Shown here one piece after another: positions 1,549 through 41,758 of a stretch of DNA of 64,000 bases. The first letter of the stretch is position 1, and every line of letters begins with the position of its first letter. The DNA comes from Alphaproteobacteria bacterium (GTDB lineage Bacteria > Pseudomonadota > Alphaproteobacteria > Rhizobiales > Xanthobacteraceae). Under the pieces are notes generated by a model that saw only the letters and a list, made by a program, of their open reading frames with translations, ran no database searches and had not been told where the DNA came from. Location of the stretch: NCBI GenBank assembly GCA_005885285.1, contig VAZG01000187.1, positions 2,282-66,281 on the forward strand, given 5' to 3'. The translations under genes and the position numbers were made by a program.

Positions 1549-1562
1549 TTGATCTACATCAA
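1549..1562. promoter_or_regulatory. FixK/FNR box
   Basis: TTGAT-CTAC-ATCAA, perfect consensus, about 120 bp upstream of the cytochrome/oxidase operon. Confidence 0.75.
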
Positions 1563-1684
1563 TCCCAGTGTGCATCTTGGCTGACGTATTCGATTTCGCG
1601 GCCAAGGGAATCGACTACGTCGTCTCCATTTGTGAAGACTTTGCCTACGAGAAGTTGGGATCGAACTGAGCTTGGGGAGGCTGC

Positions 1685-2392
1685 GTGTCGCTACGAATTG
1701 CCATCGCCGGGTTGGGGATAGGCCTCTCCGTTCAGGTTTTTCCCGTTGGCGCTCAAACACCCGGCCAACCGCCGGACACGATGGCGGCACGCGTGGAGGC
1801 CTGCACCCCCTGTCATGGCAACCAGGGCGAAGGCACCAGCGACGTCTATTTTCCGCGGCTCGCAGGCAAGCCCGCCGGCTATCTTTACAACCAGCTTCTC
1901 GCGTTCGAGAACGGGCGGCGGAAGTACCCGCCGATGAACTACCTGCTTGAATATCTGGGCGATCCGTACCTCCAGGAGATGGCGGACTACTTCGCCAGCC
2001 AGCATCCGCCGTTGCCGGCGCCCGTACCCAGTGATGTCAGCCAGGACGTGCTGCGGCACGGCGAGGCCTTGGTGACCCGGGGAGACGCGTCGCGCCAGAT
2101 CCCCGCGTGCGCGAGCTGCCATGGACCGACGCTCACTGGCATGGAGCCGGCCATCCCGGGACTGCTTGGCCTGCGTCCGAACTACGTCAGCGCGCAGCTT
2201 GGGGCGTGGCGCTACGGGACTCGCACGGCGAAGGCTCCGGACTGCATGCAGATCGTTGCGGGCCATCTGACCGAAGCGGACGTCACGGCGGTTGCGGCTT
2301 TCCTTGCGACACGCCCCGCTCCGGAGAACGCGGCGCCGGTACCGAAGGGCACCTACATCCTGCCCTTCTTCTGCGGCAGCCAGCCGAACTGA
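1685..2392 (+). CDS. di-heme cytochrome c4/c553 family
   Basis: Signal peptide; CTPCH and CASCH heme motifs; RLAGKPAGYLYNQL typical of c4. Confidence 0.9.
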   Translation: MSLRIAIAGLGIGLSVQVFPVGAQTPGQPPDTMAARVEACTPCHGNQGEGTSDVYFPRLAGKPAGYLYNQLLAFENGRRKYPPMNYLLEYLGDPYLQEMADYFASQHPPLPAPVPSDVSQDVLRHGEALVTRGDASRQIPACASCHGPTLTGMEPAIPGLLGLRPNYVSAQLGAWRYGTRTAKAPDCMQIVAGHLTEADVTAVAAFLATRPAPENAAPVPKGTYILPFFCGSQPN

Positions 2393-2402
2393 GGAGGGAT
2401 CG

Positions 2403-3641
2403 ATGAGATCGGCGTGGCTGACTCTTCTTCTGTTTCTTGCTTCTACGGGTACGGTGGCCCAGGCGCAGGACAACCGCACCGTCGTCGTCACGCGCGGCGA
2501 GTACCTCGCCCGCGCCGGCGACTGCATCGCCTGCCATACCGCACCGGATGGCCAGATCTTCACCGGCGGGCGCGCCATGCCCACCCCGTTCGGCACGCTC
2601 TACACCTCCAACATCACGCCGGATCCGGAGACCGGTATCGGTAGATGGAGCCCCGACGATTTTTACAAGACCATGCACAGCGGCCGCTTTCCCGACGGCG
2701 GGTTGATCTATCCCGCGATGCCGTTCGGCTCCTACACGAAGGTCACCCGCGCCGACAGTGACGCGATCTTCGCGTACCTCAGGTCGATACCTCCGGTGAA
2801 CCAGAAGAACCGTCCGCACGACCTCCGCTTCCCGTACGGCAACCGATCTCTCATCCTCGGCTGGCGCACGCTGTTCTTCAGCGAGGGCGAGTACAAGTCC
2901 GACCCAAGCAAGTCGGCCGAATGGAATCGGGGCTCGTACCTCGTCGAAGGACTAGGCCATTGCGGCATGTGCCACTCGCCAATTAACGCGCTCGGGGGCA
3001 CGCCGCAATCCGAAGCATTCAAGGGCGGACTGATCCCAATGCAGAACTGGTACGCTCCTTCCCTCACCTCCAATCGCGAAGCGGGACTGGGCGACTGGAG
3101 CATCAAGGACATCACCGATCTCCTGCAGACCGGCGTCTCGGCGCGCGGCGTGGTGTACGGGCCGATGGCCGAGGTCGTCCACAACAGCCTGCAATACCTG
3201 AACGATGAAGATACGAAGGCGATGGCGGTGTACCTGAAGAGCATCGCCGAGTCGGGGACTCGGGTGCCATCGAGTTCCGCGCTACCCACCACCGAAAGCA
3301 GTCTGCTGACGAGTCTCGGAAAGACCGTCTACGACGCCCGCTGCGCGAGCTGTCACGGCGCCCAAGGCGAAGGCAAGCCGCCGCACTGGCCGCCGCTCGC
3401 CAACAACCAGTCGATCGAGATGGAGTCCGCGGTCAATCCGATCCGGATGGTGCTGAACGGCGGCTATCCGCCCGGCACCGAGGGCAACCCGAGGCCCTAC
3501 GGCATGCCGCCATTCGCCGGCCTATTGTCGGACAACGAAGTCGCTGCTGTCGTCACCTACATCCGCACCACCTGGGGCAATCGCGGCACGCCGGTGAGCG
3601 CCCGCGAGGCTAATGAATTGCGGTCGGCGCCCCTCAACTGA
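2403..3641 (+). CDS. tri-heme cytochrome c (gluconate/alcohol dehydrogenase cytochrome c subunit family)
   Basis: Start taken at ATG 2403 after GAGG; CIACH, CGMCH and CASCH motifs; YTSNITPDPETGIG signature. Confidence 0.9.
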   Translation: MRSAWLTLLLFLASTGTVAQAQDNRTVVVTRGEYLARAGDCIACHTAPDGQIFTGGRAMPTPFGTLYTSNITPDPETGIGRWSPDDFYKTMHSGRFPDGGLIYPAMPFGSYTKVTRADSDAIFAYLRSIPPVNQKNRPHDLRFPYGNRSLILGWRTLFFSEGEYKSDPSKSAEWNRGSYLVEGLGHCGMCHSPINALGGTPQSEAFKGGLIPMQNWYAPSLTSNREAGLGDWSIKDITDLLQTGVSARGVVYGPMAEVVHNSLQYLNDEDTKAMAVYLKSIAESGTRVPSSSALPTTESSLLTSLGKTVYDARCASCHGAQGEGKPPHWPPLANNQSIEMESAVNPIRMVLNGGYPPGTEGNPRPYGMPPFAGLLSDNEVAAVVTYIRTTWGNRGTPVSAREANELRSAPLN

Positions 3642-3654
3642 GGCAACGCAACAC

Positions 3655-3834
3655 ATGATCAACTCGGACCTACCAGAGCAGATCGCGAATACCGCAAATG
3701 ACCGTGTCGACAGGATCGTGGCCGCAGGTCCTCGAGGCGCGCTCACGCTGGCCGGAATCGGCACCGCCATCGTGATCGCGATGTGGTTCGCGTTCTACCT
3801 CTTCGTCTTCCTGCCCCGCGGAGCCCTGCAATGA
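3655..3834 (+). CDS. single-TM small protein, probable accessory subunit (IIa-like) of the ba3-type oxidase
   Basis: 59 aa with one hydrophobic helix; stop overlaps the subunit II start (ATGA). Confidence 0.55.
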   Translation: MINSDLPEQIANTANDRVDRIVAAGPRGALTLAGIGTAIVIAMWFAFYLFVFLPRGALQ

Positions 3835-4394
3835 CGGTGCAGGACGGCCATCACGGCGCCGAGGTCGCTGAGCGGACCGAGAAGCGCTGGGCGATGATCT
3901 CCATCATCATCATCGTGATGCTGGTGCTGCTCGCTGCCTTCGCTGGCATCCATCAGGCGACCATGCCGCAGGCCCGCGTCGAGACCACGGATCCCGCGCG
4001 CCTGCATCTCTCCGGCGAGTTCGTCGAGTCAAACCTCGGCACGGCGGCGGAGGCGGACGGGACGGTGACGGTGCGCGCCATCGGCCAACAGTATTCGTTC
4101 ACGCCGTCCTGCATCCTGGTGCCCGCACAGACGCCGGTCACGCTTCGGGCAACGAGCGCCGACGTGGTCCACGGAATCCTCATACAGGGCACCAACGTCA
4201 ACACCATGCTGGTCCCGGGCTACGTGTCCGAGCAGTTCATGCGGTTCGAGAAGACCGGCGACCACCTCATGCCTTGTCAGGAGTTCTGCAGTTTCGGCCA
4301 CGAAGGCATGTGGGGCAAGGTCAAGGTGATCGACAAGACGGAATTCGCTTCGCGGGCGAAGAACCGTGGGAGGCTGAGCTGTGTTGGTGAATAG
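3831..4394 (+). CDS. cbaB: B-family (ba3-type) cytochrome c oxidase subunit II
   Basis: One N-terminal TM helix; CuA ligands DVVHG..CQEFCSFGHEGM. Confidence 0.88.
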   Translation: MTVQDGHHGAEVAERTEKRWAMISIIIIVMLVLLAAFAGIHQATMPQARVETTDPARLHLSGEFVESNLGTAAEADGTVTVRAIGQQYSFTPSCILVPAQTPVTLRATSADVVHGILIQGTNVNTMLVPGYVSEQFMRFEKTGDHLMPCQEFCSFGHEGMWGKVKVIDKTEFASRAKNRGRLSCVGE

Positions 4395-6003
4395 GAAACT
4401 CATTCTCGCGCATTTCTGGCTCGCCTTTGGTGGCTTCGGGTTGGCGCTGTTACTGGGTGCCTGGCAGATGTTCGTCCGTAGCCCGCTCTATGCGTGGATC
4501 AGCAATCCGGAATGGTACTACCGGTCGCTGACGGCGCACGGCACGGTGATGGGCTATGTCTTCCCGACGCTTGTCGCGATGGGCTTCGGATACGCGATCA
4601 CCGAGTCTGCTCTGCAACAACGCCTCGTCGGCGTGCGCTGGGCCTGGGCGGGCTTCTGGCTCATCGTTCTGGGCGCCGTTATGGCGATGGTCCCGGTCGC
4701 GCTCGGCCGGGCCTCGGTGCTCTACACCTTCTACCCGCCGCTGATCGGCAACGCCTTCTACTACGTCGGCGTGGTTCTGGTCGTGGTCGGCTCCTGGATC
4801 TGGGTCGCGCTGATGTCGATCAATCTCCGGGTCTGGCGGCGCGAGCACCCGGGGGAACCCGTGCCGCTCGCGATGTTCGCCAACGTCGCTGGATCATATC
4901 TGTGGGCCTGGACGGCGGTCGGCGCGGCTCTCGAACTTCTACTCCAGATCATTCCGGTTGCGCTCGGCTGGAAGACGACAATTGACGCCGGGCTCGCCCG
5001 CGTGTTCTTCTCCTGGACGCTGCACGCCATCGTCTATTTCTGGCTGATGCCGACCTACATCGCCTACTACACGATCGTGCCTCGCGCGATCGGAGGCCGG
5101 CTTTACAGCGACTCGATGGGGCGGATCGCGTTCATCCTATTCCTGATCGTGGCCATGCCGATCGGCATTCATCACACCTTTGCCGATCCGCAGGTTGGCG
5201 CCGGATTCAAATTCATCCACTCGGCCTTCACCGCACTGGTCGCGCTGCCGACACTGCTGACCGTGTTCACGATCTGTGCCTCCGTCGAGATCGCGGGGCG
5301 ATTGCGCGGCGGTAGAGGTCTATTCGGCTGGATCGCGGTGCTGCCGTGGAAGAACCCGATCATGCTCGCGGTCGCTTTCTCTTTCGTGCTTCTCGGTTTT
5401 GGCGGCGCCGGCGGGCTGATTAACATGAGCTATCAACTCGACACCACCGTCCACAACACGCAATGGATCACCGGTCACTTCCACCTGATCTTCGGCGGTG
5501 CAATCGTCATCATGTATTTCGCAATCGCCTACGACCTGTGGCCCCATCTCACCGGCCGCGCGTTGCCGGACCTGCGGCTGGCACGCGCGCAGCTCTGGCT
5601 GTGGTTCGTCGGCATGATCGTGACCACGTTCCCATGGCACTGGGTCGGAATCCTCGGCATGCCCCGGCGAATGGCCTACTATGATTATGCGGACCCCGCG
5701 ATTTCGCCTCAGGCATTCTCGGTGACGTTGTCTGCGATCGGCGCCATCATCCTGCTGATCTCGGGTCTGCTGTTTCTCTTCATCCTGGCGACTGCGCATC
5801 GACAGACAGCAACGGAGGCAGGGGCCTACCGCTTCAGCGTCGCCGTCCATCCGCCAACAACGGTGCCTATCGCGCTCAACACGTTCGCGCTCTGGGTAGC
5901 GCTCATGATCGGCCTCACCGTCACCAATTACGGGTATCCCATCGCGGTGCTCGCCTCACGGCCGGACACGTCCGTCCCGGCGGTCTATGTTGGAGCGCAG
6001 TGA
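4381..6003 (+). CDS. cbaA: B-family (ba3-type) cytochrome c oxidase subunit I
   Basis: His ligands in TAHG, WTLHAIVYFW (His-Tyr pair), IHH and GHFH; PRR motif; B-family pattern. Confidence 0.9.
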   Translation: MLVNRKLILAHFWLAFGGFGLALLLGAWQMFVRSPLYAWISNPEWYYRSLTAHGTVMGYVFPTLVAMGFGYAITESALQQRLVGVRWAWAGFWLIVLGAVMAMVPVALGRASVLYTFYPPLIGNAFYYVGVVLVVVGSWIWVALMSINLRVWRREHPGEPVPLAMFANVAGSYLWAWTAVGAALELLLQIIPVALGWKTTIDAGLARVFFSWTLHAIVYFWLMPTYIAYYTIVPRAIGGRLYSDSMGRIAFILFLIVAMPIGIHHTFADPQVGAGFKFIHSAFTALVALPTLLTVFTICASVEIAGRLRGGRGLFGWIAVLPWKNPIMLAVAFSFVLLGFGGAGGLINMSYQLDTTVHNTQWITGHFHLIFGGAIVIMYFAIAYDLWPHLTGRALPDLRLARAQLWLWFVGMIVTTFPWHWVGILGMPRRMAYYDYADPAISPQAFSVTLSAIGAIILLISGLLFLFILATAHRQTATEAGAYRFSVAVHPPTTVPIALNTFALWVALMIGLTVTNYGYPIAVLASRPDTSVPAVYVGAQ

Positions 6004-6818
6004 TGAGCGCGCGCGAAATCTTCTCCTCTCGCAATCCCTATTTCGCAATCAGCGTCGGCGTCGTGGCCGGCATATTCGTACTGACCGCGGTCGGAGGCTT
6101 CATCATTCTGCCTTACGCCCAGCCCGAGCTGAAGTTCGCCGGCATTTGGGACGTGATCTGCAGCGCTGCGGGTCTGCCGCAGCGGTCAGCCTCCTCCGAC
6201 GCGGTCCAGCCCGTGCGTCGCCTCTCCGAGGTGGTCCTGACGCCGACAACACTCGCGCACCCGACGCAGGAGTCGATCGGACGCGGCGCCACGCTGGCGC
6301 AACGATGCGCGATCTGTCACGGGCCGACGGGCGTCAGTCGCGCGGACTCGCCGAACCTCGCCGGCCAGTATGGGATCGTGATCTACAAGGAGCTGGTCGA
6401 CTTTCGCTCAGGGGCGCGCACCAACGCGGTGATGGCGCCATTCGCCGTGAACCTGACCGACCGGGAAATCGTCGACCTCGCGGCCTACTACGCCTTTCTG
6501 CCCCGCCTGCCCGCCTACCACCCACAGCAGCAGCTTCGGAAGCCGCGCGTCGTGATCTACGGCGCGCCGATACGCGGCGTAGCGCCCTGTGGATCCTGCC
6601 ATGGCAGCTTGGACAACAAGGCCGGTAGCCCATGGCTTGAGGGGCAGTCGGAGACCTACCTGAAGTTCCAGCTTCACGCGTTCGCGTCAGGCCAGCGCAC
6701 CAACGACATCAGCCAGCAGATGCGCAATATCGCGCGCGCGATGACGCCGCAAGAGATCGATGAGGCAGCGGCCTACTACGCCTCGCAGCCGTCGGAGATC
6801 GTGAAGGCGACGGATTAG
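6003..6818 (+). CDS. membrane-anchored di-heme cytochrome c4-like protein
   Basis: N-terminal TM; CAICH and CGSCH motifs; PNLAGQY. Confidence 0.88.
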   Translation: MSAREIFSSRNPYFAISVGVVAGIFVLTAVGGFIILPYAQPELKFAGIWDVICSAAGLPQRSASSDAVQPVRRLSEVVLTPTTLAHPTQESIGRGATLAQRCAICHGPTGVSRADSPNLAGQYGIVIYKELVDFRSGARTNAVMAPFAVNLTDREIVDLAAYYAFLPRLPAYHPQQQLRKPRVVIYGAPIRGVAPCGSCHGSLDNKAGSPWLEGQSETYLKFQLHAFASGQRTNDISQQMRNIARAMTPQEIDEAAAYYASQPSEIVKATD

Positions 6819-7141
6819 GGTGCGTACTCATCTGTGGACGCCCTGCCAGATGCAAGCGGTATTTGAAGAAGGTTGGCACGTAGTCGGATGCTGCCATCTG
6901 TCCGGCCTCTGATGCAGCGATGGAGCTGCGGGCCCGTAGGGAGTTCGCGGACGGAAACCAAATCATAAACTTCCCGGCCGCCGCTCAGTCGCTTTTCGTC
7001 AACGGGCTTCGCAAACGACGTCATAGTCTGAGAAACGCGGCCGTTGTGAGTCGGCACGTCATTGAAGCAGTTGACTCATCTCCAAGGTCACCACTCAACC
7101 ATCCCGTCAACGCGCAGAAAAAAAGCAGTGGCGCGATCGCC

Positions 7142-7396
7142 TCAATCGGCTGAGGCGTTCTCAGTGATTGCTCGCGGCGTCCGGCCTCTCAGGGCTTCCA
7201 GAAGTTCTTCAGCCAGGAAGGGCTTGATCAGGACAGCGACACCATCGACCGGCTCAAGCAATGTAAGGCTCAGCCGCCCGGCGACAAAATAGGCCAGTCC
7301 CACTCCGACGGTCAAAATAACGTCTGTCTCGCTTGCGTGCGGCTGGCGAGCCAAAATGACCGTCTTTTTTGCGGCAGTGCCCAGTGTCCGCTCCAC
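7142..7396 (-). pseudogene. chimeric remnant: MASE1 sensor N-terminus fused to a response-regulator C-terminus
   Basis: VGLAYFVAGRLSLTLLEPVDGVAV (MASE1-like) runs directly into LIKPFLAEELLEAL (receiver-domain end). Confidence 0.5.
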
Positions 7397-7535
7397 TTGT
7401 TAGCCAACAAAAATCCGCGGATCACCTCACGTCAAAAGTCTTGCACAGTTGCCGCCACGTCGCGCGGCACCGCCAGCGGCTATAAACCCCCATCGCCGCT
7501 AATGCCACCGCACGTAGACGAGCTTTCTGGCAGTG

Positions 7536-7549
7536 TTGAGGTGGATCAA
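7536..7549. promoter_or_regulatory. FixK/FNR-like box (1 mismatch)
   Basis: TTGAG-GTGG-ATCAA between the divergent MASE1 remnant and DUF2254 gene. Confidence 0.45.
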
Positions 7550-7779: not shown

Positions 7780-9069
7780 ATGTTGATGAACTGGAGTCAA
7801 AAATACGGCCTCAGAAGCTATCTCAAGTCGTCGCTTTGGCTCGTTCCATTTATTGCCATTCCCATTGAACTCGTCGTCACACGATTATTGCATGGACTTG
7901 ACGGTTGGCTCGGATGGGCTCTTTTGGGCTTGACGGTGCAAGGCGCGCAAGCGTTGCTCGGGGCTTTTGTCACTGTAACGCTGTCTTTCGTGGTCTTCAC
8001 GTTCGGTTCGCTGCTCATCGCGATTCAGGTCGCCAGTGCGCAAATGACCCCCCGCATTATTGCCCCGACGTTGCTGCGAAACGGCGTCGTCAAATATACC
8101 GTTGGTCTCTTCATATTTACCTTGATGTTCATGCTGAGCGCGCAGAACAGAATGGACAAGGAAGTCCACCAGCTGGTCATGCTCGTCGCAGCCTTGCTTG
8201 GGATATCCTGCTTCGCCGCGTTCTTCTATCTGATCGATTACGCATCGCGACTATTGCGCCCTATCAGTATTTTGGCGCACGTCGGCAACAGCGGACTAGA
8301 GGTGATCGAAAGCGTCTATCCCGATCTTTGTCTCGCTGCCGACATCCGGGAACGCGACAGTATAGGGCTCGGTGCTCCGGATCGTGTCGTTCAGCATCAG
8401 GGAGCGTCAAGCATTATTCTTGCGGTAAATCTTGACCAGCTGATAGCTGATGCCGAGCGCTCGAACGGCGTCATCGAATTCGTTTGCCAGATCGGCGATT
8501 TTGTCTCGGTTGATGAACCCCTGTTCAACCTTTATGGCGGCACAAAGATGATCGACGAAGAGAGATTGCGGACATCGACAGCGCTCGGGTCAGAGCGCAC
8601 TATGGAGCAGGATCCTACCTTTGCATTTCGCATTATTGTCGACATTGCGCTGAAGGCGCTGTCGCCGGCGATTAACGATCCTACCACAGCCGTGCTGGCG
8701 ATCGACCAACTCCATCGCATGCTGCGAAACGTCGGCAAACGCGATTTGCGCACCGACGAACTATTCGACAAATCCGGACGATTGCGCGTGATTTTCCGAA
8801 CTCCGGACTGGGAGGATTTCGTCCATCTCGCATTCAGGGAGATACGCGCATGCGGTTCGAACCATCTCCAAATTGTAAGGCGGCTGCGGGCGATGATCGA
8901 AAACCTGGTGCAGACGCTCCCCGCGCGCCATCACCCAGCGCTATCTGAGGAGCTAGGCCTGCTCGATCGCGACATAGAACGGCATTTTACTTACCCGGAG
9001 GATCTGATGCTTGCTCGTATCGCGGATGCTCAGGGCCTTGGGGGGCATTCCGGAACGATCAAACGTTGA
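7780..9069 (+). CDS. DUF2254 family membrane protein
   Basis: Four N-terminal TM helices; IQVASAQMTPR and ALKALSPAINDPTTAV motifs. Confidence 0.85.
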   Translation: MLMNWSQKYGLRSYLKSSLWLVPFIAIPIELVVTRLLHGLDGWLGWALLGLTVQGAQALLGAFVTVTLSFVVFTFGSLLIAIQVASAQMTPRIIAPTLLRNGVVKYTVGLFIFTLMFMLSAQNRMDKEVHQLVMLVAALLGISCFAAFFYLIDYASRLLRPISILAHVGNSGLEVIESVYPDLCLAADIRERDSIGLGAPDRVVQHQGASSIILAVNLDQLIADAERSNGVIEFVCQIGDFVSVDEPLFNLYGGTKMIDEERLRTSTALGSERTMEQDPTFAFRIIVDIALKALSPAINDPTTAVLAIDQLHRMLRNVGKRDLRTDELFDKSGRLRVIFRTPDWEDFVHLAFREIRACGSNHLQIVRRLRAMIENLVQTLPARHHPALSEELGLLDRDIERHFTYPEDLMLARIADAQGLGGHSGTIKR

Positions 9070-10300: not shown

Positions 10301-10735
10301 TCACCAATAGCCAAACCAGCCAAACTGCTGTTGCCGCGCCACCAGGAACGCAGGGGGCGCCAAGCGTTTCTTTGTAAATTTGCGTTGGCGGTGCAGCCTC
10401 GGTTCTCGCTTTTTTGCATCGGATGATGGTAGCTGGCTGACATCAGACGATCGCAGTTGCGCATATGCCTCCCATTCCCCCGCCTTGGCAGGCGCGATCG
10501 TTGCCGGGGCCGCGGCGCTCTCCTCCATGTTCGCGACCTGTGCAGGGATGATCGTCGGGAGGTTAGTGTCGTAAACAATGCGCTCCGGCCATTTCCGATC
10601 GGAATGAATGCGGATGACGTAGGAAGCCGTACTAGCGCTGTGCTCAACCGGCAATTTCGGAAAATAGGCATCAGAAATAAACAGCAGCGCGAGCAACACT
10701 CCGCCAACATAGTAAAAATATCGCGCGAGGGGCAT
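10301..10735 (-). CDS. membrane-anchored hypothetical protein (IRIHSDRKWPERIVYDT family)
   Basis: N-terminal TM; paralog at 30162-30588. Confidence 0.7.
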   Translation of the reverse strand: MPLARYFYYVGGVLLALLFISDAYFPKLPVEHSASTASYVIRIHSDRKWPERIVYDTNLPTIIPAQVANMEESAAAPATIAPAKAGEWEAYAQLRSSDVSQLPSSDAKKREPRLHRQRKFTKKRLAPPAFLVARQQQFGWFGYW

Positions 10736-11019
10736 TGGTCGCTCCATCTCCCCCGCCATTGTTCCACCTGGCAAGCATTGATCGATTGTCAGCGTTCTGT
10801 GCGCCGCTCCTGACGCCGCTCCATGCCAGCAGTCTGGGCGTCGCCTCACATGCCGTACTGACCGCGGAGGATGCCGTTAGACTGAAGGCAGCAACCGATG
10901 CCAAAAGAGAAAGAGCCTTTCGACGGGAGATCACTTCCGAATTGAATATTTCGCTCTTGGTCAGAATTCCTCGGACGGATCTGGCCAATTTCTGATGCGC
11001 GTGGTTCCAAGGTGCAGTG

Positions 11020-11033
11020 TTGATCCAAATCAA
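11020..11033. promoter_or_regulatory. FixK/FNR box
   Basis: TTGAT-CCAA-ATCAA, perfect, between divergent genes. Confidence 0.7.
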
Positions 11034-11160: not shown

Positions 11161-11451
11161 ATGTCACGTCGAACGATCTTCTCGTTGTTTGCGTCCGTTA
11201 TAATGGGCATCGCGTGCATGGCCATGATTTCAACTGATGCGTTCGCATATCGCGGCGGTGGACGCGTTGGCGTAGGCCGCGTTGGTGTTCATCACGGAGG
11301 CGCCTATCGCGGCGGCGTTTACCGGGGCGCAGCCGTACGTCGTGGCGTGGCGGTAGGCGTTGGCGCTGCTGCCGTCGGCGCTGCTGCCTACGGGGCTTAC
11401 GGACGTTACGCGCCAAGCTGCGGATACTATCCCAATCCGCCCTGCTACTAG
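11161..11451 (+). CDS. small secreted Gly/Arg/Val-rich protein
   Basis: Signal peptide ending AFA; RGGGRVGVGRV..RRGVAVGVGAAAVG; C-terminal CGYYPNPPCY. Confidence 0.7.
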   Translation: MSRRTIFSLFASVIMGIACMAMISTDAFAYRGGGRVGVGRVGVHHGGAYRGGVYRGAAVRRGVAVGVGAAAVGAAAYGAYGRYAPSCGYYPNPPCY

Positions 11452-13743: not shown

Positions 13744-13744
13744 G

Positions 13745-14483: not shown

Positions 14484-14705
14484 CTAACAAGTCATTCCGA
14501 CTGCGCACCTACGGACGGCTCGGCGGGTCTGGCGAACGGCGGTTCTTGCCACACAAACCCCGTTCACCCGCGTCATGCCCGCGCCGCAGGCTCGAGCGAC
14601 TTTCGTAATCATGCCGTCCGGTTGAGGAATCGGCGCAGGCGTCATTGCTTGTGCCGATGTTGCAACCGATAAGGCGAAGCCAGCAACAGCCAACAACCTG
14701 ATCAT
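14484..14705 (-). CDS. small secreted Arg/Cys-containing protein
   Basis: Signal peptide (SAQA); CGAGMTRVNGVCVARTAVRQTRRAVRRC. Confidence 0.65.
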   Translation of the reverse strand: MIRLLAVAGFALSVATSAQAMTPAPIPQPDGMITKVARACGAGMTRVNGVCVARTAVRQTRRAVRRCAVGMTC

Positions 14706-14818: not shown

Positions 14819-14832
14819 TTGAGATAGATCAA
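14819..14832. promoter_or_regulatory. FixK/FNR-like box
   Basis: TTGAG-ATAG-ATCAA, about 115 bp upstream of the 14705 start. Confidence 0.55.
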
Positions 14833-15108: not shown

Positions 15109-15122
15109 TTGACTTGAATCAA
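15109..15122. promoter_or_regulatory. FixK/FNR-like box
   Basis: TTGAC-TTGA-ATCAA upstream of the SulP gene. Confidence 0.55.
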
Positions 15123-15178: not shown

Positions 15179-16894
15179 ATGGCGAGTTCGGTGAGGCATC
15201 AAAAGGAGGCGACTCGGCTTGCGACTTGGCTTGGATGGTTTCCGCCAGTTCGCTGGTTGGCCCAGTATCAGTCCTCCTGGCTCTTCAGCGATATTGTCGC
15301 CGGAATCACGTTGGCCGCCTATGCGATACCCGTTTCCCTTGCCTATGCGGGACTTGCGGGCCTGCCTCCACAAGTTGGCGTCTATGGATATCTGCTCGGC
15401 GGTCTCGGCTACGCCCTGCTCGGCTCCTCGCGTCAGCTTGCGATCGGTCCTACCTCCGCCATTTCACTTATGATTGCTGGAACTGTGGGAGCTATGGCTG
15501 ATGGCGACGCTCAACGGTATGCGCAGATCGCAAGCCTCAGCGCCTTCACCGTCGCCGGACTTTGCCTGTTCGCATGGCTGCTGCGATTGAGTGCGCTCGT
15601 GAAGCTGATCAGCGACAGCATCCTTGTGGGCTTCAAGGCCGGCGCAGGCTTGACTATTGCGATGACTCAGCTGCCGAGTCTTCTCGGGGTTGCCGGCGGC
15701 GGGCATAACTTTTTTGACCGTAGCTGGCTGTTGCTGGGGCAACTCGGCCAGACGCAGTACGTCGTTCTCCTGGTCGGTGTTGTTGCGATCGGATTGCTCG
15801 TGCTCGGCGAGCGACTACTGCCGGGAAAGCCTGTCGCGCTCGGGGTTGTCACGCTAGCGATCATTGCTGCCATCATACTGGGGCTTCCCTCGCTCGGTGT
15901 ACCGACGACAGGGAAAATCCCGGCGGGCTTACCCGTCTTGGCAGGGCCGGCTCTCAGGTTGCGCGACGTCGAGGGAATAGTTCCACTGGCAGCCGGCTGC
16001 GTGCTGCTGGCGTATATTGAGAGCGTCTCCGCCGCCCGCGCCTTCGCTGCCAAACACGGATATGCCCTCGATCCCCGGCAAGAGCTTCTGGGGATCGGGG
16101 CAGCCAACTTCGCAGCAGCGATGGGGCAAGGTTACCCGGTAGCCGGTGGCCTGTCGCAATCGGCCGTGAATGACAAGGCTGGCGCGCGCACGTCCTTGGC
16201 ACTCGTCTTTGCCTCGATGACGCTTGCGCTTTGCTTGCTCTTTCTCACCGGCCTGCTCGAGAACCTTCCAAAGGCGGTGCTGGCTGCCGTCGTCTTGACC
16301 GCGGTGTACGGCTTGCTGGATTTTCCGGCGCTGTTCCGCATGTGGCGAGTTAGTAGGCTGGATTTCGGCGCCGCGACTATCGCTCTTCTGGCTGTGCTGC
16401 TTCTCGGCATACTCCAAGGCATTCTGCTTGCCGCACTGGCCTCGATACTATTGCTGCTCGCTCGCGTGTCGCAGCCAAATATTGCGTTTCTCGGCCGTGT
16501 TCCGGGCACCAACCACTATTCCGATCTGGCCCGTCATCCCGAAAACGAGCCGCTAACAAGCGCATTTGCCTTTCGTCCCGAAGCATCCCTGATTTACGTC
16601 AATGCCGACTCTGTTCGGGAAGCGGTCTTCAGGCGTCTTCGTGAAGCTGATTCTCCGGCCATTCGCCTGGCCGTCTGCGATCTCTCCGCCGCGCCATATA
16701 TGGATCTTGCAGGCTCACGCATGCTACGCGAGCTCCAGGCCGAACTTGCCGACCGCGGTATTTTGCTCCGCATCATCGGTGCTCGCGGATCGGTGCGCGA
16801 TCTGCTTCGGGCCGATGGCATCGAGGACAAGGTGGGACGCCTCGACCGCACCTTGACCCTCGACGGCTTACTTGCTGCCAATCTCCAGGTCTAA
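15179..16894 (+). CDS. SulP/SLC26 family anion permease with STAS domain
   Basis: DIVAGITLAAYAIPVSLAYA, GSSRQLAIGP; C-terminal STAS (DLSAAPYMD). Confidence 0.92.
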   Translation: MASSVRHQKEATRLATWLGWFPPVRWLAQYQSSWLFSDIVAGITLAAYAIPVSLAYAGLAGLPPQVGVYGYLLGGLGYALLGSSRQLAIGPTSAISLMIAGTVGAMADGDAQRYAQIASLSAFTVAGLCLFAWLLRLSALVKLISDSILVGFKAGAGLTIAMTQLPSLLGVAGGGHNFFDRSWLLLGQLGQTQYVVLLVGVVAIGLLVLGERLLPGKPVALGVVTLAIIAAIILGLPSLGVPTTGKIPAGLPVLAGPALRLRDVEGIVPLAAGCVLLAYIESVSAARAFAAKHGYALDPRQELLGIGAANFAAAMGQGYPVAGGLSQSAVNDKAGARTSLALVFASMTLALCLLFLTGLLENLPKAVLAAVVLTAVYGLLDFPALFRMWRVSRLDFGAATIALLAVLLLGILQGILLAALASILLLLARVSQPNIAFLGRVPGTNHYSDLARHPENEPLTSAFAFRPEASLIYVNADSVREAVFRRLREADSPAIRLAVCDLSAAPYMDLAGSRMLRELQAELADRGILLRIIGARGSVRDLLRADGIEDKVGRLDRTLTLDGLLAANLQV

Positions 16895-27097: not shown

Positions 27098-27111
27098 TTG
27101 ATACAGATCAA
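27098..27111. promoter_or_regulatory. FixK/FNR box
   Basis: TTGAT-ACAG-ATCAA, perfect, upstream of the CoA transferase. Confidence 0.78.
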
Positions 27112-27835: not shown

Positions 27836-27838
27836 AGC

Positions 27839-28489
27839 ATGGATGCTCAATCTCTTATCGCGCGACGAGTAGCGCTTGAGCTTCGATCAGGTGACTTGGT
27901 CAACCTCGGCATTGGCATTCCGACCCTGGTTGCCAACTACGTTCCACCGAGCCTCAAAGTATTCTTCCAGTCGGAGAATGGATTGATCGGCACGGGACCA
28001 ATTCCCGAGCAGGGCATGGCCCATCCATTGCTCACGGACGCCGGCGGCCGGCCGATCAGCGCACTGCCCGGTGCATGCACCTTCGACAGCGCGATGTCGT
28101 TCGGGTTGATCCGCGGCGGGCATGTGAATGTGACCGTTCTTGGCGGTCTTCAGGTCGACGCCGAAGGACACCTTGCGAACTGGATGATCCCCGGCAAGAT
28201 GGTGCCGGGGATGGGCGGCGCGATGGACCTGGTGAGCGGTGCGAAGCGAGTCATCGTCGCCATGCAACATGCCGCGAAAGGGAAATCGAAAATCGTCCAG
28301 AAGTGCGCCCTGCCCCTGACCTCTTCCCGGCCGGTCGATCTGGTCGTCACGGAAATGGCCGTGATCGGTTTTTCGGGCGGAAAGATGACGCTGCAGGAGA
28401 CCGCCCCTGGCGTGACTGTCGCCGAGGTCATGGCGGTGACGGAGGCGGATTTGTTCATCCCAGCCAGTGTTCCGGAAATGAAGCTCTGA
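27839..28489 (+). CDS. 3-oxoacid/acetate CoA-transferase subunit B (AtoA/ScoB family)
   Basis: NLGIGIPT, catalytic SENG, PGMGGAMDL. Confidence 0.92.
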   Translation: MDAQSLIARRVALELRSGDLVNLGIGIPTLVANYVPPSLKVFFQSENGLIGTGPIPEQGMAHPLLTDAGGRPISALPGACTFDSAMSFGLIRGGHVNVTVLGGLQVDAEGHLANWMIPGKMVPGMGGAMDLVSGAKRVIVAMQHAAKGKSKIVQKCALPLTSSRPVDLVVTEMAVIGFSGGKMTLQETAPGVTVAEVMAVTEADLFIPASVPEMKL

Positions 28490-30161: not shown

Positions 30162-30588
30162 TCACCAGACTCCGTTACCGAACCAAGCAAATTGCGGTTG
30201 CCGGGCTGCCGGCAGATGTCTCTTGGCAACCTTGTATTGGCGTTGCAGCTTTGGCTTTCGCAATTTTTGGACGAATGGCTGCAATTGCTCGGTGTCGGAC
30301 AGCTGCGCAAACGCCTCACGCACCCTCACTTTGGCTGAGACGTCGGCGATCATTGCCGAGGCGTTGGCGCCGACCTCCGCGCTCGCGATCTGCACGGGAA
30401 TGATTGTCGGGAGGCTCGTATCGTAAGCAATGCGCTCCGGCCATTTCCGATCGGAATGAATACGGATGATGTACGAACCCGTGCCGGCCCTGTGCGTAAT
30501 CGGCGGTTTCGGAAGATATGCATCCAAAATAAAAAGGCAGTACGAGCAATATTCCGCCAACGAGCGAAAAATATCGCGCGAGAGGCAT
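30162..30588 (-). pseudogene. frameshifted paralog of 10301-10735
   Basis: MPLARYFSLVGG start in one frame and IRIHSDRKWPERIAYDT body in another; +1 shift near 30535. Confidence 0.7.
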
Positions 30589-30867: not shown

Positions 30868-31107
30868 TCAGCGGCGACCGACGCGATCCACCGGACCGCC
30901 GCGATTCCTGGGCGTTCCAGGCGCGCCGACCCCGGGGGTCACCACCGCGCGCGCGACGGGCCGTGGACGAAGCACCACACCCGCCCTCACGGTGCAGCCA
31001 ACAGGGTAGTCGACATATTGGCAGTAGACCACGGCACCAACCTGTTCCGTACCAGCTGTTACGAAGCCAGCGACAAGCAGCGCGGATGATGCGATCAAGA
31101 ATTTCAT
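30868..31107 (-). CDS. small secreted Arg/Val/Pro-rich protein
   Basis: Signal peptide; VVYCQYVDYPVGC..RPRPVARAVV. Confidence 0.65.
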   Translation of the reverse strand: MKFLIASSALLVAGFVTAGTEQVGAVVYCQYVDYPVGCTVRAGVVLRPRPVARAVVTPGVGAPGTPRNRGGPVDRVGRR

Positions 31108-31214: not shown

Positions 31215-31228
31215 TTGATACAGATCAA
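31215..31228. promoter_or_regulatory. FixK/FNR box
   Basis: TTGAT-ACAG-ATCAA, perfect, about 108 bp upstream of the 31107 start. Confidence 0.72.
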
Positions 31229-37066: not shown

Positions 37067-37080
37067 TTGATATAGGTCAA
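37067..37080. promoter_or_regulatory. FixK/FNR box
   Basis: TTGAT-ATAG-GTCAA, 65 bp upstream of the DUF3141 start. Confidence 0.7.
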
Positions 37081-37170: not shown

Positions 37171-38292
37171 CTAACCCTCCGCGACGAGTTTTTCTCCGTC
37201 CTGCGCCGCAACAGGCGAGACAGCGCCAGCCTGATCCTCGCGGATCCATGCCGTCATCAGTTCCCAGGCTACCGCCAGGATGATGGGCCCGATAAAAAGG
37301 CCGACGATGCCATGCGCCAGCATGCCGCCCAAGACGCCGATGAAGATGACAAGCATCGGCGTGCTCAGTCCGCGTCCCATCAGCATGGGCTTCAAGATGT
37401 TGTCAGCCAGCCCCACGATCAGCAGATAGATTGTTAGCGGGAGAGCCACCGCAAACTCCTTGGTCGCCCAAATCCATATGATGACGGGAATGAGGACGAT
37501 CGCCGACCCGATCTGCAGGATTGCAAGGATCAGCACGGCGAACGCCAACGCGCCCGCGTGAGGCACGCCCGCAAGTTTCAATCCGATTCCGGCTAGCAGC
37601 GACTGGAGGACGGCAACGCCGATTACTCCCTGGGACACCGTGCGTATTGTCAGCCCTGCCAGCGCAACAAAATCATCGCTTCGCTGCGCCATGAGACGCG
37701 ACTGCATTCTTCTTGTCGCCGCAACGAGGTGCGGGCCGTGGACAAACAGGAAACCGGACAACGCCACTGACAGAACAAACTTGAGCGTACCCATGCCCGC
37801 ACTGCCGGCAAAGGCGAGTACCGGACCGGCCAGTGGCTTCAGGTGCGGAGCTACCTGACGCAACACAGCCCCAAGATTTGTAGCAGCCTGGTCCCAGAGG
37901 CCGTAAACCCGCGGACCGATGATCGGCCAGTCTTTGACGCCGTCTGGCGGCGACGGAATAGCCAAGTTGCCTGCGCCGAGCTGGCCCGCGAAGCCTTGCA
38001 ATCCATCGATCAAGCCCACTCCGAGCCACGTCACCGGTCCGATGATGATCGCGAGACTGACAGCCGTGATGATCATAGCCGCCAGCTTCGGCCGATCGCC
38101 AAGCTGTAGCGATAGCCAGCTGTACGGCGGGTACAGGGCCACGGTGAGAATCATACTCCAGGCCAGTATGGGAATGAATGGACGAACAAGGACGAACGAC
38201 CAGTAAAGTAGGAAGGTCAGCAGAGCCAGGCGGATCGCCAGTTGTGTGATCTCGTCGCCGGATTTGATTTGCCGAAACAGCCGTAGGGTCAT
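37171..38292 (-). CDS. AI-2E family transporter
   Basis: DNILKPMLMGRG..GIVGLFIGPIILA. Confidence 0.9.
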   Translation of the reverse strand: MTLRLFRQIKSGDEITQLAIRLALLTFLLYWSFVLVRPFIPILAWSMILTVALYPPYSWLSLQLGDRPKLAAMIITAVSLAIIIGPVTWLGVGLIDGLQGFAGQLGAGNLAIPSPPDGVKDWPIIGPRVYGLWDQAATNLGAVLRQVAPHLKPLAGPVLAFAGSAGMGTLKFVLSVALSGFLFVHGPHLVAATRRMQSRLMAQRSDDFVALAGLTIRTVSQGVIGVAVLQSLLAGIGLKLAGVPHAGALAFAVLILAILQIGSAIVLIPVIIWIWATKEFAVALPLTIYLLIVGLADNILKPMLMGRGLSTPMLVIFIGVLGGMLAHGIVGLFIGPIILAVAWELMTAWIREDQAGAVSPVAAQDGEKLVAEG

Positions 38293-38407: not shown

Positions 38408-38421
38408 TTGATCCAGATCAA
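38408..38421. promoter_or_regulatory. FixK/FNR box
   Basis: TTGAT-CCAG-ATCAA, perfect, between divergent AI-2E and GNAT genes. Confidence 0.75.
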
Positions 38422-38510: not shown

Positions 38511-39032
38511 ATGTCCGGAGCCGCCGACTATTCGGCCGTCGAGCATCTTCGCGACGGGCGTCCGATTGAAATTCGCGCACTTCGTCCCGATGACAGAGCC
38601 GAGATGCTCGCGGCCGTCGGACGAACCAGCACGCAATCGCTGCGACGACGCTTTTTCGTACCAAAAAAGGTTTTCTCGGAGCAGGAATTGGCGTTTTTTC
38701 TCAACATCGATTTCGAAAACCATGTCGCGCTCGTCGCGCAGATCGATGAAGACGGATCTCCGACGATCGTCGCTGGTGGACGCTATATCGTTGTCCAGCC
38801 CGGCCAGGCTGAGATAGCTTTCGTCGTGGTCGATGCCTATCAAGGTCAAGGTATTGGCACGATCCTCATGCGCCATCTTGCCGTTCTGGCGTGCGATGCC
38901 GGCCTCAACGAGCTGATTGCGGAGGTGTTACCCGAGAACACCGCGATGCTGAAAGTGTTCGGCAAATTCGGCTTTCGACCAAGCTCAAAACGGGAGCCCC
39001 AGGTCAGACATCTGACCATGCGGCTTAACTGA
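38511..39032 (+). CDS. GNAT family N-acetyltransferase
   Basis: LRDGRPIEIRALRPDD; VVDAYQGQGIGT acetyl-CoA loop; ENTAMLKVF. Confidence 0.88.
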   Translation: MSGAADYSAVEHLRDGRPIEIRALRPDDRAEMLAAVGRTSTQSLRRRFFVPKKVFSEQELAFFLNIDFENHVALVAQIDEDGSPTIVAGGRYIVVQPGQAEIAFVVVDAYQGQGIGTILMRHLAVLACDAGLNELIAEVLPENTAMLKVFGKFGFRPSSKREPQVRHLTMRLN

Positions 39033-39184: not shown

Positions 39185-39454
39185 TCAGCGGCAGACATAC
39201 GACCCATTTACCAGTACGCGGACACAGCGCGTGGCGGCTGCACCAACAGTCGCTCCGCCTACTACCGCGCGCCGTGTCGTTCGTCGCGCAACGCCTGCAA
39301 CGCTCACCGGGGTTCCCGGCCGTCCCACCCTGGCCTGCGCGCTTTCAATTGACAGCGAAAGACCGTTCCTTGCTGACCAGTCTGCGGACCCTAGAGCTCC
39401 ACATGCGACAACGGCGACAACCAAACATACCTTCTTAACGCTGATTTGCCTCAT
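39185..39454 (-). CDS. small secreted protein (ESAQARVGRP family)
   Basis: LSIESAQARVGRPGTPVSVAGVARRTTRR. Confidence 0.7.
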   Translation of the reverse strand: MRQISVKKVCLVVAVVACGALGSADWSARNGLSLSIESAQARVGRPGTPVSVAGVARRTTRRAVVGGATVGAAATRCVRVLVNGSYVCR

Positions 39455-39506: not shown

Positions 39507-39520
39507 TTGATCTAGGTCAA
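39507..39520. promoter_or_regulatory. FixK/FNR box
   Basis: TTGAT-CTAG-GTCAA, 53 bp upstream of the 39454 start. Confidence 0.7.
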
Positions 39521-39711: not shown

Positions 39712-39744
39712 TCCCTTCACGATCATGGTTTCCAAAAATCGAGA

Positions 39745-41418
39745 TCACATCATCTGCTCAGCCGAGTGATGCTCGCCCACGGGAATAGCGAGCTCGAAAA
39801 TGGAGCCACCAGAGTCCGACTTAACAAGCCGCAATTTGCCTCCGTGGCTTTCGGCCACAGTAATACAAATAGCGAGCCCCAATCCCGTGCCGCCAGATTT
39901 CGTCGTAAAGAACGGATCAAATATGCGCTCTCGATCCTGGACAGGAATTCCGGGTCCGGAGTCTTGAACCGTCAGCAATACGGTCGAGCGGCCGTCGAAG
40001 CTCGTCGTGAGCCGCAGACGTCGTGCTTCAGGGATCACCGAGCTCATTGCGTCGATAGCGTTTTTGACGAGGTTCAAAAGCACTTGCTGGAGTTGCGTGC
40101 CATCCAGATGCACCTTCGGAAGGTTGCCTTGGAACTCTGTAGCGATAGATATCTCGTTGATTTGAAGATCGTATTGCAGCAATCTTAGTACTACCCGAAC
40201 AACATCCTCTACGTGTGCTAGCGCCCTTCGGTCGGTCGTCTTTTTCGTCAGTTCGCGCATGCTCGAAATGATTGCACCCGCGCGATAGCTTTCGGCTTCT
40301 ATGTCACCAAGGATGTCGTCCATTTCTTCCAGATCTGGAGGGTTCGAGCGCAGCTTGCTGATGGCTGTACTGGCATTAAGTGCGATAGCACCCAATGGCG
40401 TCCTTAGCTCATGGGCGACAACAGCCGTGACCGCGTCTACGCTCAAAAGCCGGTTAGCGCGTTCGCGTCGTTGCAAGATGATGGCGCTGGCGAGGCGCGA
40501 ATAGAGAAACATTGTTTCGATGAGCAACACGCTCAGCAACATGCAACTGCCGATTAGAACGAAGCAACGAGCCGCGTACCAACCGATGGAAAATCGTACC
40601 GAACTGGCGATGGCAGCAACCAGGAAGTTTGGCATCCAGGCGAGCAAAGTCACCATCAACCATAAATCGAGGATCGTGCGCCTGCGAGACAATAACACGG
40701 CGAGCGCCGTACCGCCCCAGACCCAAAGCGCAACGTTGATCTGGTTGGCGAACCGCGTTTGCAACGTCTGGTTGGCGCTGTAGAGGCTCGGGAGATAGTC
40801 CGCTTTCGTTATCACGATCCAGGCCAGTCCAGCGGTCACCCCAAGTACGCAGACAACAGTGATTCCAATAGTGGTCATCGTCGATCTGCCCGGCAGCGTG
40901 GCCGCTCCAATCGGATCTTTGGCGAGCGCATAGACGAGGATCGCGGTCGGAAACGTCGTGTGCCAAAGCACGAAGAACCAAGCTGGAGTGTTCAATTCAT
41001 CACCGATCAGACCAGCTGGCGCGTACGCCCCCGGAAACGCCAGCGTCTGCAACAGCGCAAACGAGCCGCTGAACATGTAACCGCTTGCGAGCGCGAGAAG
41101 GGCGCGCAGAGGCTGTATCGAGAATTGAGCAAACAGAAGGGTTGCCGTGATAAAATCGACAACGCTCAAGACAGTCTGCAAAACCGGAATGAAGGCATCA
41201 ACGCGAGCCACCTGTATGCTCGCGAACGGTGCGATAACAGCCGCCGCGACGGTCAAAAGGACAATGATGCCGACCGCTATCGCCTGTTGTCGTCCGGTTG
41301 CCGGCATCGTTGCGATAACTAATGGGAAATCTTGCCCCTCTTTTCGAGCAGCGTCGACTGCGGCCTCCGGCAAAACGGCCTTTCCAGAATCCGCTTGGTG
41401 AACTTGCGCCGATTTCAT
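39745..41418 (-). CDS. sensor histidine kinase with MASE4-like membrane domain
   Basis: Multi-TM N-terminus (FPGAYAPAGL..AWFFVLWH); HELRTPL, NLVKNAIDA, DSGPG and FFTTKSGGTGLGL boxes. Confidence 0.9.
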   Translation of the reverse strand: MKSAQVHQADSGKAVLPEAAVDAARKEGQDFPLVIATMPATGRQQAIAVGIIVLLTVAAAVIAPFASIQVARVDAFIPVLQTVLSVVDFITATLLFAQFSIQPLRALLALASGYMFSGSFALLQTLAFPGAYAPAGLIGDELNTPAWFFVLWHTTFPTAILVYALAKDPIGAATLPGRSTMTTIGITVVCVLGVTAGLAWIVITKADYLPSLYSANQTLQTRFANQINVALWVWGGTALAVLLSRRRTILDLWLMVTLLAWMPNFLVAAIASSVRFSIGWYAARCFVLIGSCMLLSVLLIETMFLYSRLASAIILQRRERANRLLSVDAVTAVVAHELRTPLGAIALNASTAISKLRSNPPDLEEMDDILGDIEAESYRAGAIISSMRELTKKTTDRRALAHVEDVVRVVLRLLQYDLQINEISIATEFQGNLPKVHLDGTQLQQVLLNLVKNAIDAMSSVIPEARRLRLTTSFDGRSTVLLTVQDSGPGIPVQDRERIFDPFFTTKSGGTGLGLAICITVAESHGGKLRLVKSDSGGSIFELAIPVGEHHSAEQMM

Positions 41419-41619
41419 TGCTGCGCGGTCCTGAGCGTTAGACGGTTCTATCCGTCAGGCTGGCCGAATGGAAGGGCACAGTTAGCCTCGAACAGCAGTT
41501 AGGCCAGTCGCTTGCGTCACAGTCGGACCAGCTGAACTATCGTACTTGCCAGTTAGGCTCCGGCCTCGTAGCGCCATGGCCAAGCGATCACGGCGCCGCC
41601 ATGCGCACCCTCGCAAGCC

Positions 41620-41647
41620 CATGCTTGATCTAGCTAGATCAAGCATG
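41620..41647. repeat. perfect 28-bp palindrome: FixK box with CTAG duplicated
   Basis: CATGCTTGATCTAG|CTAGATCAAGCATG. Confidence 0.9.
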
Positions 41648-41744
41648 ACCACTGCGGGTTGATCGAGGGACCTGGGCCGGGTAGCGCGGCCTTGCTATCT
41701 CCTCTGTTTGTCAAGCAAACGGTAGACATCCGGGACGAGTACCC

Positions 41745-41758
41745 TTGATCTAGGTCAA
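41745..41758. promoter_or_regulatory. FixK/FNR box with no obvious downstream gene
   Basis: TTGAT-CTAG-GTCAA, identical to the 39507 site. Confidence 0.55.

Follow-up and report, generated by a model that had tools for sequence, protein, structure and literature searches.

A FixK-box-rich gene cluster, probably a low-oxygen regulon, in an uncultured soil relative of Bradyrhizobium

Boxes and genes of the block

The 64,000-nucleotide stretch of contig VAZG01000187.1 analysed here (the window; Alphaproteobacteria bacterium, Xanthobacteraceae) carries in its left 42 kb a series of genes interspersed with 14-bp palindromes of the kind read by FixK and related CRP/FNR proteins, together with a gene for a FixK-like regulator. 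An earlier note on this DNA had listed fourteen such sites (TTGAT-N4-ATCAA) and read the block as a portable hypoxia island. Every one of the fourteen was recovered when we scanned with the pattern TTGATNNNNATCAA at no more than one mismatch, using 100 shuffles of the window as background. At this threshold the window holds 17 matches, compared with 1.14 ± 0.96 expected, and none of the 100 shuffles reached 17; the exact core TTGA-N6-TCAA likewise occurs 17 times against an expectation of 0.87. A position weight matrix (PWM), trained on the same fourteen sites and scored across the window, gave a bimodal distribution with these sites at 16.9-27.7 bits and all remaining matches at or below 14.2 bits (apart from the fourteen, 12 matches reach at least 8 bits, compared with about 5.4 expected by chance). 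The extra one-mismatch matches at 4810, 38830 and 45157 and the core-only matches at 20526, 25924 and 40064 score low and lie within provisional gene calls. All fourteen boxes fall in 1549-41758, and the PWM scan found no strong box in 41759-64000, so the claim that none lies to the right of 42447 holds for strong sites, the match at 45157 being a weak one inside a gene call. The binomial probability of finding all fourteen in the left 65% of the window is 0.0036, with a boundary picked post hoc, and site density here refers to the 64-kb window.

The gene map draws on Pfam and NCBIfam scans, on gene calls from near-identical soil contigs and on our own codon-model calls. Simple calling based on G+C at third codon positions missed small genes; the codon-model call was used together with a targeted scan downstream of each box. 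After correction of start codons all fourteen boxes are intergenic and twelve are centred 59-135 bp from a plausible start, in keeping with the placement described earlier; the exceptions are the boxes at 7536 (146/237 bp) and 41745 (333 bp from the start of a kinase gene). Four boxes lie between divergent genes and could serve both sides. By our own count, a box precedes about 20 of the roughly 24 transcription units in 1-42 kb, which bears out the description of the block as almost wholly wired to these sites. The units without one encode the FixJ-like and receiver proteins, the FixK-like regulator and an AraC regulator, and perhaps also the aquaporin and a 165-amino-acid protein. Pfam and the gene calls also agree with the functions proposed for the block, namely a ba3-type oxidase with c-type cytochromes, PPK2, a DUF3141 polyhydroxyalkanoate (PHA)-synthase-like protein with Pta, AckA and FabI, a CoA transferase, transporters and small secreted proteins.

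At the left end, the gene for ATP synthase subunit a (485-1282, minus strand) diverges from a ba3-type (B-family-like) haem-copper oxidase operon (1685-6818, plus; Pfam and NCBIfam), which encodes a cytochrome c, a dihaem/trihaem cytochrome c, a 59-amino-acid CoxIIa-like protein, COX2, COX1 and a further cytochrome c. Between the two lies the box TTGATCTACATCAA (1549-1562; 24.4 bits), centred 129.5 bp from the start at 1685. An 84-amino-acid gene (7142-7396, minus) is followed by the weakest of the fourteen boxes, TTGAGGTGGATCAA (7536-7549; 16.9 bits), which has a -10-like AATGGT on its plus side, and by a DUF2254 gene (7780-9069, plus) with 218- and 65-amino-acid genes up to 10052. Beyond a 152-amino-acid gene (10301-10759, minus), the box at 11020-11033 lies upstream of the gene for a 96-amino-acid secreted Gly/Arg/Val-rich protein (11161-11451, plus). 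The next genes, all on the minus strand, encode a 165-amino-acid protein, an aquaporin (MIP family), a 167-amino-acid protein and a 73-amino-acid signal-peptide protein (14484-14705), the last with an upstream box at 14819-14832 and a -10-like GAAATT at the expected spacing. The box at 15109-15122 is centred 63.5 bp upstream of a SulP/STAS anion transporter gene (15179-16894, plus; Pfam), and that at 16959-16972 lies upstream of genes for a DUF308 membrane protein and a LapA-domain protein (17073/17176-18085, plus; Pfam).

A perfect box, TTGATCTAGATCAA (22067-22080; 27.7 bits), is common to two divergent units: a leftward one encoding a 137-amino-acid, a 148-amino-acid, an HlyD-like, a 286-amino-acid and an EipA-like protein (21979 down to 18197, minus), and a rightward one encoding a 151-amino-acid protein and PPK2 (22145-23442, plus; Pfam). 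Similarly, the box at 24035-24048 is common to the genes for a second EipA-like (DUF1134-type) periplasmic protein (23520-23957, minus) and a small membrane protein (likely start 24126, end 24413, plus). To the right of the regulatory genes described below, a box at 27098-27111 is centred 83.5 bp upstream of genes for CoA-transferase subunits A and B (27188-28489, plus; Pfam), and an AraC regulator gene without a box follows to their right on the same strand. A 132-amino-acid gene (30162-30560, minus), possibly co-transcribed with the gene for a 79-amino-acid secreted protein (30868-31107, minus), precedes the upstream box of the latter at 31215-31228. The operon for DUF3141 (PHA-synthase-like), Pta/Ptb, AckA, FabI and a K+ channel runs from 37002 down to 31258 (minus; Pfam), with its start taken from called genes of 730 amino acids; its box at 37067-37080 is centred 71.5 bp upstream and has a -10-like AATCCT. 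Another shared box (38408-38421) separates an AI-2E family transporter gene (37171-38292, minus; Pfam) from a GNAT acetyltransferase gene (38511-39032, plus), and an 89-amino-acid signal-peptide protein gene (39185-39454, minus) has its box at 39507-39520, centred 59.5 bp upstream with a -10-like TATCGT.

At the right end, a gene for a MASE4-domain sensor histidine kinase (39745-41418, minus; Pfam and NCBIfam), itself downstream of boxes, adjoins a 1.4-kb stretch without a convincing gene (41420-42818) that keeps the same length in four other soil contigs. In this stretch lies the site at 41625 that had been called a disrupted box: it is indeed box-derived, and takes the form of an 18-bp perfect palindrome, TTGATCTAGCTAGATCAA (TTGATCTAG|CTAGATCAA; 41625-41642), in which the spacer has gained 4 bp; with 12.5 bits per half, it is probably inactive as a FixK box. 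The last box (41745-41758) sits within a decayed 78-bp copy (41694-41771; 74% identity) of the promoter, box and ribosome-binding site of the 89-amino-acid gene, in which the start ATG has become AGG. This copy may be either the relic of a decayed paralogue or part of a long regulated leader driving the MASE4 kinase gene.

For each of the four small proteins of 73-96 amino acids (11161-11451 plus; 14484-14705, 30868-31107 and 39185-39454 minus), a FixK box stands immediately before the gene. All four have a signal peptide and a tail rich in Arg, Gly, Val and Ala, two share a VARxxxRxTRRAV-like stretch, and none matches a Pfam family. The 152- and 132-amino-acid genes are paralogues that share a stretch of about 80% DNA identity; no function is assigned to them, and they have homologues in 26-27 related loci.

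Promoter-like behaviour of the boxes

In order to assess the boxes as promoter elements, we compared the window with 80 loci around the orthologous regulator gene in Bradyrhizobium and related uncultured Alphaproteobacteria. Pooling 413 unique boxes from the window and these loci and averaging over both orientations gave an A/T signal at fixed distances from the box centre (A at +29.5, T at +30.5, T at +33.5/+34.5). It would correspond to a -10 hexamer spaced as in class II CRP/FNR promoters, which would put the box centre near -40.5/-41.5, and so lends indirect support to such an arrangement. In the window itself, nAnnnT occurs at the -10 spacing on the gene-facing side of most boxes. We also aligned unique orthologous upstream regions of the CoA-transferase (44 regions), AI-2E (30), 151-amino-acid (20) and 79-amino-acid (14) genes. 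In all four footprints no block other than the box reaches 90% conservation, aside from the region of the ribosome-binding site and start, and a few positions at the predicted -10 are conserved as well.

Boxes are found upstream of the first genes of operons, namely CoA-transferase A (43/43), the 151-amino-acid gene (19/19), DUF3141 (14/14), AI-2E (29/29), GNAT (14/14) and the 79-amino-acid gene, which is kept together with its box in all 12 relatives that have it. Internal genes give the opposite picture (CoA-transferase B, 0/43; PPK2, 0/15; Pta, 1/24; AckA, 2/32; FabI, 1/32). The palindromes are over-represented, intergenic and conserved in orthologous promoters, and the regulator encoded among them combines a cyclic nucleotide monophosphate (cNMP)-like and a Crp-type helix-turn-helix domain with an E--SR recognition helix, as expected of a class II CRP/FNR system. 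Altogether, three independent computations agree that the boxes behave like functional class II activator sites.

That the 14-mers are instead a dispersed repeat of the repetitive extragenic palindromic or miniature inverted-repeat transposable element type, or chance occurrences, with no regulatory role, might be suspected from the shared flank of the copies at 39507 and 41745 (78 bp, 74% identity; repeat D2) and from the weak CC...GG consensus that flanks the boxes. However, apart from repeat D2 the flanks are unrelated, only the box and -10 positions are conserved in orthologous promoters, the sites keep a fixed distance to the first genes of operons and no shuffle reaches the observed count. 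The footprints and the box-gene pairing already refute a repeat or chance origin, to which we assign a negligible probability.

The FixK-like regulator and its FixJ-like neighbour

The regulator gene that the earlier note placed in the block lies at 26371-27042 (plus; Pfam and NCBIfam) and encodes a protein of 223 amino acids with cNMP-binding-like and Crp-type helix-turn-helix domains (Pfam), the best NCBIfam match being FixK. Alignment with the sequence of the Bradyrhizobium diazoefficiens FixK2 crystal structure (4I2O) gave an E value of 2.5e-81 and about 71% identity. The recognition helix LTLETVSRALS is identical in the two proteins, so the same box specificity is expected. We initially assumed that this was the canonical FixLJ-FixK2 locus, an assumption dropped when tblastn with the FixK2 structure sequence gave 72.5% identity at the orthologous locus even in genomes of the B. 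japonicum group (B. yuanmingense, B. agreste, DOA9 and others). As identity to FixK2 is about 71% here and no more than 72.5% there, the local protein is, judged by its sequence, a cysteine-free FixK2 paralogue and not FixK2 (Bll2757). It lacks cysteine altogether and has Ser at the position of Cys183, which in FixK2 is oxidation-sensitive (PMC9104804); the local regulator should therefore escape that post-translational control.

The gene order also departs from the canonical arrangement. The FixK-like gene is divergent from a FixJ-like response regulator gene (25091-25729, minus; Pfam; NCBIfam FixJ, 185.9 bits against a cut-off of 255) and the single-domain receiver gene downstream of it (24504-24878, minus), rather than lying downstream of fixL-fixJ-orf138 on the same strand, and the FixJ-like and receiver order beside the regulator is kept in 73 of the 80 loci. 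Pfam and NCBIfam scans of the window detected no FixL or other sensor kinase adjoining these genes, and where relatives have a kinase at that spot it resembles FixL in the kinase core only (NCBIfam). The MASE4 kinase is a candidate partner of the FixJ-like regulator; its orthologue in one relative (L013) is 78% identical and has a box about 315 bp upstream of its gene.

No FixK box precedes the local regulator gene in the window, and boxes are scarce upstream of all three regulatory genes among the relatives (receiver, 0/64; FixJ-like, 3/73; FixK-like, 3/80). The core-only site at 25924 was considered as an autoregulatory box and rejected, since a box before the regulator occurs in just 3 of 80 relatives. 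Instead, three tandem GGACAATG repeats (26192-26229, plus), 15 bp apart, lie 142-179 bp upstream of the FixK-like gene. The repeats and an adjacent CCAATAG are conserved across 72 unique upstream regions, with two to four repeat copies in relatives, and are plausible candidate binding sites for the divergent FixJ-like regulator. As the promoter lacks a box and carries these repeats, the FixK-like gene is probably switched on by the FixJ-like protein.

We consider it probable, at roughly 0.8, that the block is a chromosomal, vertically inherited, FixK-type (CRP/FNR) low-oxygen regulon cluster in an uncultured soil relative of Bradyrhizobium; both the oxygen dependence and the FixK-type occupant of the boxes we infer. 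In the mechanism that we propose, a FixK-type dimer would bind each 14-bp palindrome, centred about 40-41 bp upstream of the transcription start, and by class II activation would switch on some 20 transcription units together. The targets would include the alternative ba3-type oxidase with its cytochromes c, the SulP transporter, PPK2, the CoA transferase, the AI-2E transporter and the GNAT acetyltransferase. The DUF3141-Pta-AckA-FabI-K+ channel operon could provide substrate-level ATP synthesis and a carbon or redox overflow, and envelope proteins and the four small secreted proteins without assigned function would be further targets. Upstream, the FixJ-like regulator, phosphorylated by a non-adjacent kinase, would turn on the cysteine-free FixK2 paralogue.

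Several points weigh against this interpretation. The boxes at 7536 and 41745 lie far from the closest start codon, and four soil metatranscriptome runs yielded fragmentary contigs, with two 151-nt pieces in fabI only. FNR, FixK and DNR proteins read near-identical boxes (PMC2908626), so the occupant could be canonical FixK2 or another family member encoded elsewhere. Furthermore, a role in negative feedback on fixK2, rather than as a main activator, has been proposed for Bll3466 (PMC4064962), one of the three FixK paralogues of B. diazoefficiens (Bll2109, Bll3466 and Bll7696).

The boxes might thus be real and driven mainly by canonical FixLJ-FixK2, or an FNR/AadR-type protein, encoded elsewhere, with the local FixK-like protein as a modulator or competitor, for example a feedback repressor of the kind proposed for Bll3466. 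The paralogue status of the local regulator (about 71% identity to FixK2; 72.5% for its orthologues) and the absence of an adjacent FixL are in line with this alternative. In B. diazoefficiens, the paralogue genes bll2109, bll3466 and bll7696 are induced under microoxia and their proteins were not detected under that condition (PMC6515984), and FixK2 activates bll2109 and bll3466 (PMC9104804). In contrast, the promoter of the local regulator lacks a FixK box in 77 of 80 loci, and the gene is therefore no simple target of FixK2 here; a conserved repeat element of its own precedes it, a divergent FixJ-like partner accompanies it in 73 of 80 loci, and the densest clustering of boxes is centred on it. 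Taken together, we regard control mainly by FixK2 or an FNR-type protein as somewhat unlikely, if a serious contender. A bolder reading would be a self-contained, FixL-independent module, in which an orphan FixJ-like protein acting through GGACAATG switches on the FixK2 paralogue and this in turn about 20 operons, including the MASE4 kinase (as positive feedback) and the small secreted proteins; such a module would be a counterpart of the Burkholderia lxa locus discussed below, widespread in soil relatives of Bradyrhizobium and expanded here. It is tempting to speculate along these lines, but we consider this full version unlikely.

Origin, known counterparts and flanking genes

The earlier note had described the block as portable, with an att-like site at 42447, which would imply that 42 kb were gained as one mobile hypoxia cassette integrated near that point. 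Signs of exchange do exist: relatives carry the gene modules in shuffled order, the oxidase genes share 75% nucleotide identity with Methylobacterium plasmid genes annotated as a b(o/a)3-type oxidase, and a 155-bp non-coding element lies at 6816-6970, just after the oxidase operon. This element, the only mobile trace in the block, has 80-90% identical counterparts on 111 alphaproteobacterial plasmid records (Bradyrhizobium, Sinorhizobium, Paracoccus, sphingomonads and others). Three annotated records were inspected, and each has an IS110-family transposase gene on the opposite strand, ending about 115-125 bp from the element. No such transposase is present in the window, so the copy here is an orphan. 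The plus strand of the element folds with conserved stems, G-U pairs and variable loops (-63 kcal/mol, z -2.0); no Rfam family matches 6700-7450 at E ≤ 1, nor the whole window at gathering score. It could represent one end of an IS110/IS1111-type element, non-coding and possibly giving rise to an RNA, or else the preferred target of such an element.

However, the features expected of an island were not found. The window contains no tRNA gene, the block has no flanking direct repeats that we could find, and the Pfam results include no integrase or recombinase domain, with incomplete coverage of open reading frames and no integrase-specific search. Reading of the sequence around 42447, by inspection only, revealed no obvious att-like feature, and G+C content is similar inside (0.55-0.65) and outside (0.54-0.61) the block. 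A plasmid origin was rejected because megablast of 50 kb against PLSDB returned single-gene matches only, so that the sequence is not a known plasmid. The junction of the block with its right flank is identical in four contigs from different soil samples. In the closest relative (L006), gene order matches that of the window between the HlyD-like gene and GNAT, with the CoA-transferase/AraC segment as the one departure. Cultured relatives with the same modules include Bradyrhizobium sp. URHD0069, B. valentinum LmjM3 and Bradyrhizobium sp. TZ2 and STM 3562. Around the orthologous regulator, most of the 80 loci hold 3-11 boxes per 20 kb, compared with about 0.3 expected, and the same box-plus-gene modules surround it in varying order; the B. 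japonicum-group loci have a smaller cluster with 3-4 boxes per 20 kb. The presence of the same modules around regulator orthologues in 80 genomes marks the cluster as ancestral and chromosomal and is decisive against an island; the analogous lxa locus is likewise not predicted to be one (PMC3721108). The mobile cassette is thus very improbable, and the comparison argues for a cluster that has been vertically inherited, locally reshuffled and made larger here than in the B. japonicum group.

The low-oxygen regulon cluster that we propose resembles the FixLJ-FixK2 regulon of B. diazoefficiens in its box (TTGA-N6-TCAA), recognition helix, class II-type spacing and bacterial family, and in targets such as a respiratory oxidase, a PHA-synthase paralogue, acetate metabolism and small proteins without known function (PMC9104804, PMC10454721, PMC2908626). 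It differs in that the regulator is a roughly 71% identical paralogue without cysteine and with Ser for Cys183, in that its gene is divergent from a FixJ-like gene, not downstream of fixLJ, and has no adjacent FixL, and in that the window lacks fixNOQP and fixGHIS, its oxidase being ba3-type. The bll3466, bll2109 and bll7696 loci likewise encode FixK-like proteins distinct from FixK2, and these genes are microoxia-induced (PMC6515984, PMC9104804). In strain USDA110 the operon blr3456-blr3459 includes pta (blr3457) and ackA (blr3458) (PMC10888616). As locus-tag numbering places it close to bll3466, much as the DUF3141-Pta-AckA-FabI operon lies near the FixK-like gene here, the window may correspond to the bll3466 region.

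The B. diazoefficiens genome has a size of about 9 Mb. One FixK2 iModulon of this species has the motif at 104 of 122 operons (PMC10454721), from which we estimate about one motif-bearing operon per 80 kb, compared with 14 boxes in 42 kb here. For Bradyrhizobiaceae, including Rhodopseudomonas palustris, an extended FixK regulon and a reduced FNR regulon have been predicted, and the FixK, FNR and DNR motifs cannot be told apart (Dufour et al., 2010, PMC2908626). The extended FixK regulon is in accordance with our results, whereas those studies list members across the genome and describe no physical clustering of them around a FixK paralogue.

In architecture, the nearest analogue is the lxa locus of Burkholderia cenocepacia J2315, which comprises 50.7 kb, 50 genes and 17 intergenic TGA-N6-TCA motifs (Sass et al., 2013, PMC3721108). 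Like the present block, it groups tens of genes on the chromosome, has numerous intergenic FNR/Anr-like motifs and covers fermentative, storage, electron-transfer and transport functions; common to both are acetate kinase, phosphate acetyl/butyryl transferase, PHA synthase, a sulphate-transporter-family protein, cytochrome c and regulators. It has typical G+C content and variable synteny between species (PMC3721108). In contrast to the block, lxa is betaproteobacterial, its regulator has not been identified as FixK-type and it is rich in universal stress proteins, a family with no match among the window proteins scanned by Pfam (not every open reading frame). Its low-oxygen induction and requirement for anoxic persistence were shown experimentally (PMC3721108), whereas low-oxygen induction of the block here is a prediction. 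The layout is therefore of a known kind, and the block is no new type of regulatory system. In the open-access literature, our search met no description of a comparable physical supercluster built around a FixK2 paralogue that lacks cysteine and has an orphan FixJ-like partner.

Many soil metagenomes contain the organism, with 20 runs holding 67-97% of the sampled words of a 10-kb stretch. The cluster offers a compact, testable list of functions that such bacteria would turn on in hypoxic soil pores: respiration through an alternative oxidase, ATP synthesis linked to acetate, the use of polyphosphate, and envelope and secreted proteins without assigned function. The pairing of boxes with first genes leads to operon and regulon predictions for DUF2254, DUF3141, the 151-amino-acid partner of PPK2, the EipA-like proteins and the small secreted proteins, and the poorly understood FixK2 paralogues emerge as possible hubs of physical regulon clusters of their own.

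To the right of the block, genes without a strong box encode a second two-component set, consisting of a 613-amino-acid kinase (42819-44660), a REC protein (44836-45189) and a REC-LuxR protein (46113-46721), followed by DUF1254/DUF1214. A 20-nt motif, TTTGTCYGATTTTGCATAGT, occurs three times in intergenic positions around this set (45505-45524 and 45910-45929) and upstream of DUF1254/DUF1214 (47630-47649, preceding 47737). It is a candidate operator of the neighbouring LuxR-type regulator and may define a separate small regulon adjoining the FixK block. Further to the right, an arsenic cluster without FixK boxes (52600-63100) encodes an arsenite oxidase, AioB/AioA (57341-60337, minus), and several ArsR-type regulators, ArsC, an aquaglyceroporin, an ArsR-phosphatase fusion and GAPDH-like and MoeA-like proteins.

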